Under the pieces are notes generated by a model. It was not told the DNA's origin, did not search any database, and saw only the letters and a list, made by a program, of their open reading frames with translations. DNA of 21,506 bases from Abditibacteriaceae bacterium (GTDB lineage: Bacteria; Armatimonadota; Abditibacteriia; Abditibacteriales; Abditibacteriaceae). Shown piece after piece: positions 2,560-18,928 of the stretch. The number at the start of each line of letters is the position of its first letter. The first letter of the stretch is position 1. The stretch spans positions 1 to 21,506 of the forward strand of contig JANMKN010000330.1 of NCBI GenBank assembly GCA_031372065.1, given 5' to 3'. The translations under genes were made by a program, and so were the position numbers.

Positions 2560-2641
2560 TTATGGAGCGCGGGCGTCCCGCCCGCATTCTGTTTTCGATT
2601 TGCGGGCGAGACGCCGGGTGCCCTCTGGGCAGACTCCATAA
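2560..2641. repeat. REP-like inverted doublet (GGAG-tagged palindrome)
   Basis: GGAGCGCGGGCGTCCCGCCCGCA (2564-2586, internal hairpin GCGGGCG-TCC-CGCCCGC) is followed by a degenerate inverted copy TGCGGGCGAGACGCCGGGTGCCCTC (2601-2625). The outer inverted repeat is TTATGGAG/CTCCATAA. Confidence 0.65.
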
Positions 2642-2719
2642 TGACCTAACTCAAGCGAATTCTGTCCGCCTACTTATGAATCAGCTTCTTTGATTTTGCA
2701 TTTTAATTCGCCTTGCAGC

Positions 2720-2747
2720 TTGACACTTTAATCATTTTTGTTAGAAT
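2720..2747 (+). promoter_or_regulatory. Sigma70-type promoter
   Basis: TTGACA (2720-2725), 16-nt spacer, extended -10 TGnTAGAAT (TAGAAT 2742-2747), in an AT-rich intergenic tract. Confidence 0.7.
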
Positions 2748-2801
2748 GGAAGCAATCAATTTTATTTTGCGTGCGTTTGTTGTTTATTTTCGGGTATCGT
2801 C

Positions 2802-3407
2802 ATGCGTATTCATGGCTCGATTTTCAACTTATTCCTTTTTCGGCCCTCTAATGCGGCCCGTTTTTTGACGTTTGCCCGCTTTGAAAAACCGTCTGCGAAT
2901 ATGCGCTACGACGGCGCCGACGTCAAAACAGCGCCAAAACGAATCCTAACTCACAATTTCTCCGTTCCGCGTTTAATCTGCCGCTCCCTCAGCCTCCCGA
3001 TGGCTCCGCCGAATGATTCTGCGCTGTTGCGAAACGATTCCGCGCTGGCGCGGAGCGATTCCGCGCTGGCGCGGAGCAATTCCGCGCTGGCGCGGAGCAA
3101 TTCCGCGCTGGCGCGGAGCAATTCTGCGCTGGCGCGGAGCAATTCTGCGCTGGCGCGGAGCAATTCTGCGCTGGCGCGGAGCAATTCTGCGCTGGCGCAG
3201 AGTAATTCTGCGCTGTTGCGCAACAGTTCCGCGCTGGCGCAGAATAATTCTGCGCTGTTGCGCTACGATTTCCCGCAGGCGCGAACCCATTGCGCGCCGC
3301 CGCGCCGCGATTGTTCGTGGGCGCTCGACCTTCTCGCGCCGCCGCGAAGCAATTTCGCGCGGTGGCACGGCTCCGGCGCGCTGTTTTGTTGTGGTTTCGC
3401 GCTGTGA
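2802..3407 (+). CDS. Possible heptad-repeat ORF (NSALARS)n spanning the 21-bp array; may be non-coding
   Basis: Open across the whole array, downstream of the promoter. Several unit differences are synonymous in this frame (TCC/TCT, CGG/CGA/CGC, AGC/AGT, AAC/AAT). No Shine-Dalgarno. Confidence 0.3.
   Translation: MRIHGSIFNLFLFRPSNAARFLTFARFEKPSANMRYDGADVKTAPKRILTHNFSVPRLICRSLSLPMAPPNDSALLRNDSALARSDSALARSNSALARSNSALARSNSALARSNSALARSNSALARSNSALAQSNSALLRNSSALAQNNSALLRYDFPQARTHCAPPRRDCSWALDLLAPPRSNFARWHGSGALFCCGFAL
3015..3266. repeat. Tandem array of 12 quasi-palindromic 21-bp units (consensus AATTCYGCGCTGGCGCGGAGC), with an in-register degenerate extension to about 3413
   Basis: Units start at 3015, 3036, 3057, 3078, 3099, 3120, 3141, 3162, 3183, 3204, 3225 and 3246. 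There are no spacers. Degenerate units continue at 3267, 3288, 3330, 3351 and 3393. Confidence 0.97.
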
Positions 3408-3442
3408 GACCGCCTAAATCCTCCTAAGGAAAAGGAAAAACG

Positions 3443-4138
3443 ATGGCAAAGAACTATTTAAAACCCTCCGATGCTGAACGCGTGGAATGGTGGCAGAACT
3501 TCATGCCCAAAGTAGAGGCCTACCAAACCACCCTCGACCTGACTGACCCAGACGTCGCCACAGTCTTGGCTGATGGCGCCATGTTCATTTATTTGGTGAC
3601 CAAACGCGTGCCTGCGATGAACACGGCGGCTAAGGCGCAAAGGAGTTACAAAAACCTGATCGCTGATGGCCCCATCGGCACACCGGCTGGTGCTCCACCG
3701 GCGTTGCCCACCGTGTCGGCGCCGCCCGCGACGGTGCCCGCTGGCATTTGGCCGCGCACGCGCGCTTTGGTGCAACGCATCAAGCGCGCCGCGAATTACA
3801 CCGAAGCCATCGGCACCGATTTATGGATCATCGGCACCGACGAGGAGATTGACCCCAACACGGCCAAACCAACCTTCACCGCCACCGCCTTGTCGGATGG
3901 CGAAGTGCGCTTGAAATGGGTCAAAGGCGCCTTTGATGGTGTTGTCATCGAAGGCCGCGCGCCCGGCGCGGCGACGTGGATTGCGCTGGGCATTGACCAT
4001 TTCAGCCCCTTCGTAGATACTCGCGACAACGCCACACCCGGCCAACCCGAAGTGCGCGAATATCGTATGCGCTATTTGGAAAAAGACGACCAAATCGGCG
4101 AATGGAGCGATGTCGTCAGCGTAACCACCAAGCCGTAA
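3443..4138 (+). CDS. Hypothetical protein: N-terminal helical domain, Pro/Ala linker, C-terminal fibronectin-III-like beta-sandwich
   Basis: Strong RBS (AAGGAAAAGGA) and coding-like codon use; no signal peptide. The C-terminus VRLKW...TW...PFVD...EYRMRY...IGEWSDVVSVT resembles FN3. Confidence 0.85.
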   Translation: MAKNYLKPSDAERVEWWQNFMPKVEAYQTTLDLTDPDVATVLADGAMFIYLVTKRVPAMNTAAKAQRSYKNLIADGPIGTPAGAPPALPTVSAPPATVPAGIWPRTRALVQRIKRAANYTEAIGTDLWIIGTDEEIDPNTAKPTFTATALSDGEVRLKWVKGAFDGVVIEGRAPGAATWIALGIDHFSPFVDTRDNATPGQPEVREYRMRYLEKDDQIGEWSDVVSVTTKP

Positions 4139-4143
4139 CGTGC

Positions 4144-4182
4144 TTTTAGGGAGCGTGGGCAAGTTGCCCGCGCTCCCTAAAA
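4144..4182. terminator. Hairpin, probable terminator, related to the REP-like element at 2564
   Basis: TTTTAGGGAGCGTGGGC-AAGTT-GCCCGCGCTCCCTAAAA; the arm GGAGCGTGGGC matches GGAGCGCGGGC at 2564-2574. Confidence 0.7.
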
Positions 4183-8762: not shown

Positions 8763-8765
<3 letters not shown>

Positions 8766-8850
8766 CTTTTAGCGATTAGCGGTTAGCTTTTAGCTGCTTC
8801 GCAGGCCATTTATAAAGAGCTAACCGCTAAAAGCTAACCGCTAAAAGCTG
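8763..8850. repeat. Inverted pair of heptamer tandem repeats (TAGCNNT)x5 / (ANNGCTA)x5
   Basis: Left arm 8763-8797: TAGCTTT TAGCGAT TAGCGGT TAGCTTT TAGCTGC. Right arm 8816-8850: AGAGCTA ACCGCTA AAAGCTA ACCGCTA AAAGCTG. Confidence 0.85.
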
Positions 8851-8864
8851 AAAAAGGGCTAACA

Positions 8865-13318: not shown

Positions 13319-14239
13319 CTATGCCTCAAGCCGTTTTGCAATAATTTCTTCGCACGCCGCGCGCCAATCGGGAAAGCGAAATTCAAAACCGGAATTTAAT
13401 AATTTGCCCGGCACGACGCGGCGACTTTTCAAGAGGAGTTCGGTTTCGGTGCCCATGAAAAACGTGCCGATAGTGAGCATCCACGCTGTCGCGGGCAAGC
13501 CAAGAGGCGCTTTCACAGTTTCTCGCAAGATTTTCATAAATTCGCGATTGGGAATCGGGTTTGGCGCAGCGCAGTTGATCGCACCATCAAGACTTTCGTG
13601 CTGCAAAATCCATCTGAGAGAGCGGGCAAAATCGGTGGCATGAATCCAACTGACGAACTGATTGCCCTTGCCTAAAGTGCCGCCCAAACCGCGCCGCGCG
13701 ATACTTTCAAAGGCGTCCATGACGCCGCCTTTTTGCGAGCCGAAAACCATTGCCGTGCGAAGCGCGATTTTGCGGGTGTTTGGCGTGTTCGGTGCCTCTA
13801 AAACCGCTTCCCATTTCTGGCACACATCAACCGAAAAACCGTGCCCTATTTCGCCCGTTGCTTCATCCATCGCGCGATCTTCGGCGTGGCGATAAATCGT
13901 CGCCGAACTTGAATTTATCCAAACACGCGGCGCCTTTTGGCATTGCGAAATGACTTCGCCGATGATTTTTGTAGATTTCAAGCGCGAATTGTAAATTTCG
14001 CGCTTATTTGCTGCGTTGTAACGGCAATTGACCGAGCGACCGGCTAAATTGATAATTGCATCGGCGCCATCCAATTCCCGCGCCCAATCACCCGAAGTTT
14101 CGCCATCCCATCGCACCAAACGCGCGCCTTCAGGCGCCGATTGACCGCGCGACAAAACCACGATTTCATGCTCTGGCGCGAAATAATCGGTGATAACACG
14201 CCCTAAAAAACCTGCGCCGCCGGGCAAAATGAGTTTCAT
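13319..14239 (-). CDS. TIGR01777 family NAD-dependent epimerase/oxidoreductase (YfcH/SDR39U1-like)
   Basis: GGAGFLG, INLAGRSV, SRLKST, VCQKWE, GLGGTLGKGNQFVSWIH, C-terminal SRRVVPGKLLNSGFEFRFP (DUF1731-like). Confidence 0.93.
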   Translation of the reverse strand: MKLILPGGAGFLGRVITDYFAPEHEIVVLSRGQSAPEGARLVRWDGETSGDWARELDGADAIINLAGRSVNCRYNAANKREIYNSRLKSTKIIGEVISQCQKAPRVWINSSSATIYRHAEDRAMDEATGEIGHGFSVDVCQKWEAVLEAPNTPNTRKIALRTAMVFGSQKGGVMDAFESIARRGLGGTLGKGNQFVSWIHATDFARSLRWILQHESLDGAINCAAPNPIPNREFMKILRETVKAPLGLPATAWMLTIGTFFMGTETELLLKSRRVVPGKLLNSGFEFRFPDWRAACEEIIAKRLEA

Positions 14240-17758: not shown

Positions 17759-18928
17759 TTATGATTTTAATATGTTCTGCTTATTCTTAACTTTATCTAA
17801 TTTTTCAAGGACTCGTTCCAGTATGGATTCATATTCCTTTAATTCCTCAATTGGGATTTTTAATTTGTTAATCGGTTCCACCCCAAATGAGGCAAAAGGC
17901 CCTCCAACAATTTCATTCAATTCTCTCTTAAATTCTTTTAATTCTTCCAGCGGCACTTTCAATCTATAAATTGGCTCTGGTCTGAGAATTGGTGATGTGC
18001 TTACAATATAGATAGCAGGTAACTCACCTACAATGGAGATAAGTTCACTTTTGAATTCTTTCAATTTATCAAGAGGCACATTTAACCTATTAATTGGCTC
18101 TACCCCCGAAGAGAAATATGAATTCCCAACTATTGCATCTAACTCACTTTTGAATTCTTTCAATTTATCAAGAGGCACATTTAACCTATTGATTGGCTCG
18201 TTCCCTAACATCGTAGGAAATTCACCAACAATCGAATTGAGTTCATTTTTGAATTCTTTTAGCTTCTCAACAGGGACATAAGCAGAAGCCAAACCGGGTA
18301 ATTCCGTATCATCGAATTTGGAAAGTAAATCGTTCACTATTCCAAAAAACAGTTGCATAGATTCGTTCAGATCACGCAGCGATTTATCGCGCTCCGCAAT
18401 AAATGCAACTTGTTCCGCACCCGTCATTTCAATGTCAAGAAACTCCAACCGTATCCCATAGGCACGAGGCGAATTTAGCAATTGTGTGATCCGCTCTAAG
18501 TGAAAGATTTCCAAACCGGCTTTTGGAGCAATTTCAGCTAAGTTTCTCTTTAATTCAGCACGTTCGCTCACGGATATCTTTTGATCTGTAACAAAAGCTA
18601 TTCCATCAACATCATTTATCTTTATGCCTTTCGCGTCATCTCGAAATTTTTTCTTGATTTGAGCAAAAGTTTGTGGCTCCCGTGGGAAATAAGAGGCTCC
18701 AATCCACTTTTTCCTCTTATATTCACAAACCACATCCTTAACCCCATCTTTGCCGCCTAATGGATGACTGGGGTCAATAGAAGTAAAACCTGCCAATTCT
18801 AGGATTTGCCCAGCAAATCTCTCTGATTCTGCTTGTCCTTTATCCCATTGAATGAGGCGGCGGCGTGCCTCGTTACCACCGCGACTTCTAACACTCTTCA
18901 CACCAGTTTCTTTGCCTCCATATGCCAT
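17759..18928 (-). CDS. Restriction-endonuclease-like (PD-(D/E)xK fold) domain fused to five tandem helical repeats; putative defence protein
   Basis: RBS GAAGGAGAG. N-terminal SERFAGQIL..AGF..IDPSHPLGGKDGVKDVVC...FRDD...IAFVTDQ...IFHLERI resembles Mrr-like REase domains. C-terminal VPLxxLKEFKxELxxIVG..EPINRL repeats. Markedly AT-rich relative to neighbours. Confidence 0.75.
   Translation of the reverse strand: MAYGGKETGVKSVRSRGGNEARRRLIQWDKGQAESERFAGQILELAGFTSIDPSHPLGGKDGVKDVVCEYKRKKWIGASYFPREPQTFAQIKKKFRDDAKGIKINDVDGIAFVTDQKISVSERAELKRNLAEIAPKAGLEIFHLERITQLLNSPRAYGIRLEFLDIEMTGAEQVAFIAERDKSLRDLNESMQLFFGIVNDLLSKFDDTELPGLASAYVPVEKLKEFKNELNSIVGEFPTMLGNEPINRLNVPLDKLKEFKSELDAIVGNSYFSSGVEPINRLNVPLDKLKEFKSELISIVGELPAIYIVSTSPILRPEPIYRLKVPLEELKEFKRELNEIVGGPFASFGVEPINKLKIPIEELKEYESILERVLEKLDKVKNKQNILKS
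17810..18280 (-). repeat. Intragenic coding tandem repeats with periods of 99, 99, 123 and 99 bp
   Basis: 18045-18091 and 18144-18190 are identical 47-bp direct repeats. The repeat-start Val/Ile codons begin (minus strand) at 18277, 18178, 18079, 17956 and 17857. Confidence 0.92.

Follow-up and report, generated by a model that had tools for sequence, protein, structure and literature searches.

Plasmid iterons with Rep and centromere arrays (parC/ParR, sopC) are two-turn-phased repeats that lie by the gene of their presumed binder, often at its promoter. In TIGR-Tas, the guide RNA of a tandem array is said to be bound by a Nop-domain protein. VIPR arrays, in the accessible part of their description, are guide RNAs with GGY/NN motifs that are bound by a RAMP protein (10.64898/2026.04.26.720920). 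For the RAYT/REPIN systems, the available portion of the source text describes palindromic extragenic repeats that fall into sequence groups; each group is positionally linked to a gene and has dispersed copies without one (PMC3116915). BrickBuilt, a MITE of Porphyromonas gingivalis, is in the excerpted account a dispersed intergenic minisatellite of a single unit family, with a 23-nt unit, a leader, a tail and IS5-like terminal inverted repeats (PMC4596501), and the 7-mer repeats treated in the accessible part of PMC4679880 are of a different class from 21-bp arrays.

Here we describe a locus in the window (the whole 21,506-nt stretch of Abditibacteriaceae DNA that was analysed) at which an array of palindromic 21-bp units precedes a gene for a 231-aa protein (Table 1). 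Like iterons and centromeres, repeats of this type are phased at whole helical turns beside a gene; unlike them, they are chromosomal and many-copy, with no Rep or motor partner among recurring neighbours and no homologue in plasmid collections. As in RAYT/REPIN, a gene-linked repeat group is accompanied by dispersed extragenic copies, the direction of donation here being putative. As far as the excerpted source goes, a REPIN is a hairpin-forming doublet of inverted repeats and the RAYT gene encodes a tyrosine transposase, whereas our arrays consist of head-to-tail 21-bp units and the gene encodes a helical/FN3 protein without a Y1 match (PMC3116915); in a further difference, about 80 families occur within one genome. 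No Pfam match to a Y1/HUH transposase was obtained for the window protein or its 139 relatives. BrickBuilt, in the part of its description available, differs in its terminal repeats (PMC4596501), of which we found none here; the arrays in this genome have a period of 21 and a partner gene family. The locus is like VIPR (10.64898/2026.04.26.720920, accessible part) and TIGR-Tas (PMC12045711), whose arrays are guide RNAs, in that one protein gene adjoins a tandem array in which constant blocks alternate with variable ones; unlike in both, the arrays often lie outside the predicted transcript of the gene and the predicted protein fold is helical plus FN3. The alternating GGY/NN motif of VIPR was not found in the 21-bp units. 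The original prediction, made from the letters alone, knew of no named system with such a layout, and our literature searches, whose coverage lay mostly outside subscription papers, likewise found no description of a module of 21-bp array and gene. New here are the genome-wide array families, the array-free congener sites and a negative donor test.

Table 1 Features of the array and gene module in the window
Feature	Position	Strand	Remark
Sigma70-like promoter TTGACA-16-TAGAAT	2720..2747	+	11/12 consensus matches
Leader	2748..2990	+	About 82% identical with leader of paralogue C247
Degenerate terminal unit of array	2991..3015	.	Similar stretch opens gene-less sister at C374
12 conserved palindromic 21-bp units	3016..3267	.	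Identity 14-21/21, in register
7 degenerate units	3268..3414	.	Identity 9-15/21, exact 21-bp register kept
201-codon ORF across leader and array	2802..3407	+	Probably no real gene
Ribosome-binding site, two AAGGA motifs	3426..3436	+	From sequence
Gene for 231-aa protein (helical bundle, then Pro/Ala linker and FN3 domain)	3443..4138	+	
Hairpin 3' of stop, 19-bp arms	4144..4182	.	REP-like or terminator; absent from C247

The promoter, the 12 conserved and 7 decayed units, the strong ribosome-binding site, the gene and the hairpin had all been predicted at this locus, and each was recovered. The 12 + 7 units follow one another in register without an indel, and the array, predicted to stop about 30 bp before the gene, ends 28 bp 5' of the ATG. 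TRF reported a period of 21 with 11.5 copies and 89% matches (3016-3257), and the units contain the dyad TCCGCG-N4-CGCGGA. Similarity between the window module and its closest paralogue, C247, is confined to the stretch that begins with the -35 box and closes with the stop codon, with the leader about as conserved as the gene; no convincing alignment was obtained between the window leader and those of L001-L004. The window array and gene are one of about 75 such pairs in the genome. A strain variant of window positions 3234-3894, on a contig from run X4, carries 51 differences, which, among those listed, cluster in the N-terminal helices with few in the decayed units, and none of the contigs examined contained a junction skipping the window module.

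Several other features of the window are recorded here as observations in their own right. The predicted region opens with a hairpin (about 2560-2585) that is a dispersed REP-like repeat with 45 genome matches at no more than 3 mismatches, and positions 2560-2640 and 4144-4182 are both REP-like hairpins. A 7-nt repeat tract lies between an enolase-like gene and the next gene (8763-8853), with 113 lag-7 runs found genome-wide, and a low-GC 389-aa ORF on the reverse strand (17759-18928) has internal 99-bp (33-aa) repeats and no clear Pfam family.

All sequence features claimed for the protein (YxxPSDAExxEWxxNF, a Pro/Ala linker and RALVQRIK...YTEAIGTDL) are present, and inspection by eye agrees that it lacks a signal peptide. 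An AlphaFold model built from a 139-sequence alignment (pLDDT 96.4) is built of three main helices and, beyond a Pro/Ala linker, an FN3 domain at the C-terminus, with helices at residues 10-24, 35-75, 102-115 and 121-126 and the FN3 domain at about 137-231; the FN3-like end that had been suggested is borne out by the best structure match (Z 12.0, rmsd 2.2, 87 aligned). Fold searches of the model returned FN3 only, with matches confined to that domain, and Pfam fn3 scored above its cut-off in 2/20 paralogues scanned. The N-terminal helical domain folded alone gave a pLDDT of 43. Searches of the window protein and its 139 relatives against Pfam, NCBIfam, PADLOC and PHROGs assigned no family, the PADLOC defence models yielding only four single-member matches among the 139 relatives (E about 0.005-0.008); a PDB sequence search gave a single chance coiled-coil match (E 0.23), and the ESM Atlas gave only unnamed clusters, with nothing usable for residues 1-132. 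The window subfamily comprises 1,835 representatives (50% identity) at E up to 0.001. Its members have a median net charge of -1, and conserved basic residues (K23, K70, R105, R112, K114, K161 and R208) occur together with conserved aromatics. The window protein is 84% identical to that of C247, with divergence highest in the first quarter (0.33 vs 0.05-0.17); this extra N-terminal divergence recurs in three pairs of the window subfamily and not in other subfamilies, and the divergent first quarter could be a specificity region.

Across the genome we collected 87 orphan helical or helical plus FN3 genes in about a dozen groups of putative common origin, using gene calls from a simple custom predictor and iterative searches from array-adjacent seeds, with two false seed groups removed. 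One array-linked gene, C318, is a member of NCBIfam NF052641 (PQLLE family; 113 bits vs a cut-off of 80), a family that has a name and no listed function, whereas the window protein gave no match to NF052641 and lies outside it. A 122-aa orphan behind an array (G000 C51:2181-2549) looks like a family member missed by the searches. Many of the Verrucomicrobia homologues (P0026-P0071, L017-L080) have a possible N-terminal extension that bears a repeated WDxGxWD motif.

If array and gene form a module, homologues of the protein should be enriched for upstream periodic arrays, as the original prediction proposed. We fetched 80 homologous loci, 71 of which had at least 400 bp upstream, and sought arrays with periods of 20, 21, 41, 42, 62 or 63 within 800 bp. 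An array was present upstream at 64/71 loci, downstream at 2/76 and farther away at 0/72, in counts that include kin and are not independent; periods of 21 and 42 only gave 60/71, including one N-run artefact. The linkage was seen in Verrucomicrobiota (53/55), Acidobacteriota (4/5), Armatimonadota (4/4) and Gammaproteobacteria (2/5), with 1/1 and 0/1 in the remaining groups. Within the genome, 80 family genes had enough flank, and the array was upstream in 66, downstream in 7 and absent in 7, compared to 128/2150 (6%) of control genes adjoining an array; the share for family genes is biased upward because the seeds were picked next to arrays. Each of the seven close paralogues in the genome is accompanied by an array, and the unit differs from one to the next. 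No recurring partner gene was found among the neighbours of array-linked genes, and no Rep, ParA/ParM or ParB. Period and gene adjacency hold across four phyla and a dozen protein groups whose units are unrelated. The proposal that array and gene make up a conserved, undescribed module is supported. A separate arrangement was observed in a G000 group of seven helical genes encoding 150-162 aa (e.g. C69:7908-8372 and C239:5613-6089), six of which have the array 3' of the gene, beginning at or just past the stop codon.

The genome contains 351-352 non-coding arrays (57/Mb, or about one per 17 kb), comprising 77 gene-linked and 274 gene-less (solo) arrays in about 80 sequence families (81-88). 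This excess is lineage-specific, with congener samples having at most 19/Mb (G003, 372 kb) and 2.5/Mb (G002, 400 kb), several of those arrays being doubtful. A sister array scoring above the null was found for 232 solos and 61 gene-linked arrays. In profile scoring, 55 of 153 clean solos exceeded the 99th percentile of the null in their match to a gene-linked array, and a solo sister was found for 32 of the 41 clean arrays that are gene-linked. The window array has its own gene-less sister by a cmk-like gene (C374:17078-17330; score 23.4, null maximum 10.2), which opens with a stretch resembling the terminal unit of the window array; its flank is also present in public contigs from two samples of one study, one of which is possibly the source sample. 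Some pairs of solo and gene-linked arrays have terminal units and unit order in common, and some solos contain 20-80 bp of additional non-array DNA. Sixty solos lie near contig ends. Solo sisters were also present in 3/3 further genomes, two of Verrucomicrobiota and one of Acidobacteriota. The neighbours of solos look by eye like ordinary genes, and because gene-less copies sit between such genes the array likely represents a DNA repeat of an undescribed type that spreads and that its partner protein probably binds. The gene-linked array is a putative donor of the solos: only 91/274 solos match a gene-linked array directly, about half of the families have no recognised gene, and a test of whether each array family has exactly one gene did not exceed chance (P about 0.10).

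To ask whether solos are insertions, we searched for 11 solo sites in three congeners, of which 8 were syntenic (flanking genes adjacent in at least one congener) and 3 were not. None of the 8 syntenic sites carried a 21-bp array in the congeners, so the arrays appear to have been inserted as gene-less blocks. At two of these sites the flanking genes of the congener have overlapping stop and start codons, and at one the gap is 2 bp. At a ccsA-hemC-like junction (gene names at these sites were assigned by eye) the stop/start overlap is found in two congeners, and in the window genome the final codons give way to the array, which provides the stop; at C88 the congener gap of 2 bp compares to about 240 bp here. 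At both sites the extra DNA is about the length of an array, with host sequence on both sides. Insertion in the window lineage is the simpler reading, although the congeners are distant (about 70-87% in genes) and loss is possible. The window locus is not syntenic in the congeners, which therefore offer no empty site at which to compare the module as such.

These sites bear on the best-surviving alternative, which is that whole modules move or duplicate and later lose the gene, the leftover array perhaps being served in trans by a paralogue. Modules do duplicate whole, from promoter to stop, as in C201/C247; the solo at C298 retains a gene remnant, indicating that gene loss occurs too and that this array is a decayed module; and the families without a gene point the same way. 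Against this, 54 of the 55 assigned solos have no remnant of a family gene within 900 bp, nor of a leader, and the extra DNA at ccsA-hemC and C88 is array-sized rather than module-sized. We therefore consider this alternative unlikely as a general account, and favour the copying of arrays without their gene.

No signature of a familiar transposition route was found. Among 52 solo flank pairs, the longest inverted match (5.98 vs 5.78 in the null) gave no indication of terminal repeats, and the longest direct match (6.31 vs 5.84) none of target duplication; at the empty sites neither was seen, where very short duplications would be missed, and microhomology was noted by eye at two or three insertion sites only. 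Plasmid and phage collections contained no homologues, and neither did viral contigs, which were searched with word patterns from the closer alignment only. No reverse transcriptase (PF00078) was found in the genome, which is 94% complete, and its 7 Y1_Tnp matches are all in other genes, with congeners about equally rich in Y1 transposases. The protein itself has no evident catalytic or copying function. As a separate observation, a palindromic element of about 150 bp (L118:5015-5170; G000 C153 about 14012-14169) is present in many copies in each of the four genomes of the genus.

We next consider what the array is. In 204 arrays of at least 5 units without an indel, column conservation is most strongly periodic at 10.5 nt (share 0.20 vs 0.10 in the null; 0.087 at 3 nt), each unit having two conserved blocks spaced about 10.5 bp apart. 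As the a/d spacing of a heptad also gives a 10.5-nt period, we tested synonymy, and the synonymous share equalled the null in gene-linked arrays (0.32 vs 0.32, n=41) and was close to it in solos (0.32 vs 0.33, n=153), compared to 0.40 vs 0.31 in repeats inside genes (n=16), 14 of which exceeded their own null. Periods that depart from whole multiples of 21 lean to 41 (38 runs, vs none at 43) and 20 (12 runs, vs 2 at 22), which, given the established helix values, is as expected of B-DNA and not of A-form RNA. At 25 of 60 gene-linked arrays, where 4.7 were expected, the interval separating array from gene contains a sigma70-like promoter; at 64 distant loci the scan was weak (between, 6 vs 1.9 expected; before, 3 vs 3.2). 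The array is most likely a double-stranded DNA lattice with one unit per two helical turns. Of the roles that had been suggested originally, a DNA binding platform fits best, the binding itself being putative. Single units or segments are inverted within some arrays (C258:1198-1467, C382:43259-43541, C94:16768-17046 and C374:17078-17330), which suggests template switching at dyads.

The same data address the proposal that the array is transcribed and its RNA coated by the protein, with variable positions serving as a guide or a scaffold, after the manner of VIPR or TIGR systems. Conserved and variable blocks do alternate, and rapid change in the unit leaves the period intact, unit similarity being just 11-13/21 (background about 10) between proteins 82-91% identical. 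A promoter precedes the array at 18/60 loci (10.8 expected), and the window locus is of this type, its array lying inside the predicted transcript with a folding z of -7.5, as expected for palindromic repeats. The frequent promoter between array and gene argues against this proposal, as do the rarity of antisense promoters (4/60), the unbiased orientation of solos (18 vs 13) and the deviation of periods to 20/41 and not 22. Variants also recur from a small pool, by eye, unlike acquired spacers, and no RAMP- or Nop-like fold was among the matches listed, which cover FN3 only. Rfam returned 17 weak hairpin matches, every one under its gathering score. We regard a protein-coated array RNA as quite unlikely. 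The intervening promoters also mean that a structured leader RNA, one of the roles first suggested, is no general role, though the array may act locally as a leader at the window locus. The claim that array and gene form one transcription unit accordingly stands for the window locus and its 84%-identical paralogue and fails for the loci with an intervening promoter; a promoter of the gene's own downstream of the array, which had been named as counting against the idea, is found in much of the family, with the window locus exempt.

It is improbable that the arrays are neutral minisatellites, carried along by hitchhiking on the gene and dispersed through ordinary recombination, with a protein whose job is unrelated. 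Non-core positions do diverge like third codon positions (9-10/21 vs 69/231) and slippage maintains an existing period, but neutral hitchhiking should not retain both period and adjacency in four phyla and a dozen protein groups. Weakest of all is the earlier suggestion of a heptad-repeat partner polypeptide encoded by the array, here taken to pair with the long helix of the protein. Despite the heptad-compatible periodicity, an ORF across the array that is also open in C247 (188 aa) and open frames slightly above a column-shuffled null (2.35 vs 1.89), it is very improbable given the lack of synonymous excess in the gene-linked and solo arrays when coding repeats show it, the closure of all six frames in 22/204 arrays, the occurrence of 41-bp and 20-bp periods, and the 9 synonymous and 19 non-synonymous changes between the window ORF and that of C247 in the first 71 codons.

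Taken together, our leading reading, which we hold tentatively, is that the module consists of a non-coding 21-bp landing lattice for the neighbouring protein, with arrays copied gene-less to intergenic sites. Oligomers of the protein would coat one face of B-DNA, one repeat per two turns, and the bound protein would probably regulate the promoter of its own gene, positioned immediately 5' or 3' of the array. The steps that follow are the most conjectural: protein might bridge and pair the array with unit-like sites, and host repair or template switching might then resolve the pairing such that a block of units is pasted elsewhere. The module would in that case be a semi-selfish repeat system with a RAYT/REPIN-like organisation and without a transposase domain. 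The acidic character of the protein (pI 5.2) speaks against a lattice-binding role, its conserved basic residues notwithstanding, and FN3 is, to our knowledge, not a usual DNA-binding fold; the fast turnover of units is also difficult to reconcile with strict reading of their sequence. A bolder formulation, that non-enzymatic helical (+FN3) proteins read rewritable two-turn lattices, pair look-alike sites and seed copies, and so constitute a new class of mobile repeat, seems to us rather unlikely at present.

A very large orphan protein family is now tied to a specific DNA feature, and an explanation is offered for hundreds of otherwise unexplained intergenic 21-bp arrays. The window protein can be set against its own array, the sister at C374 and the diverged pair of C247, which makes binding and specificity directly testable. 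If the protein binds the array and helps it to spread, this would be a case of repeat dispersal without a transposase or reverse transcriptase domain. The modules would then provide a set of natural protein-lattice pairs, and, on the bolder formulation, the about 80 parallel array families in one genome would represent a library of orthogonal, possibly programmable DNA-binding scaffolds.
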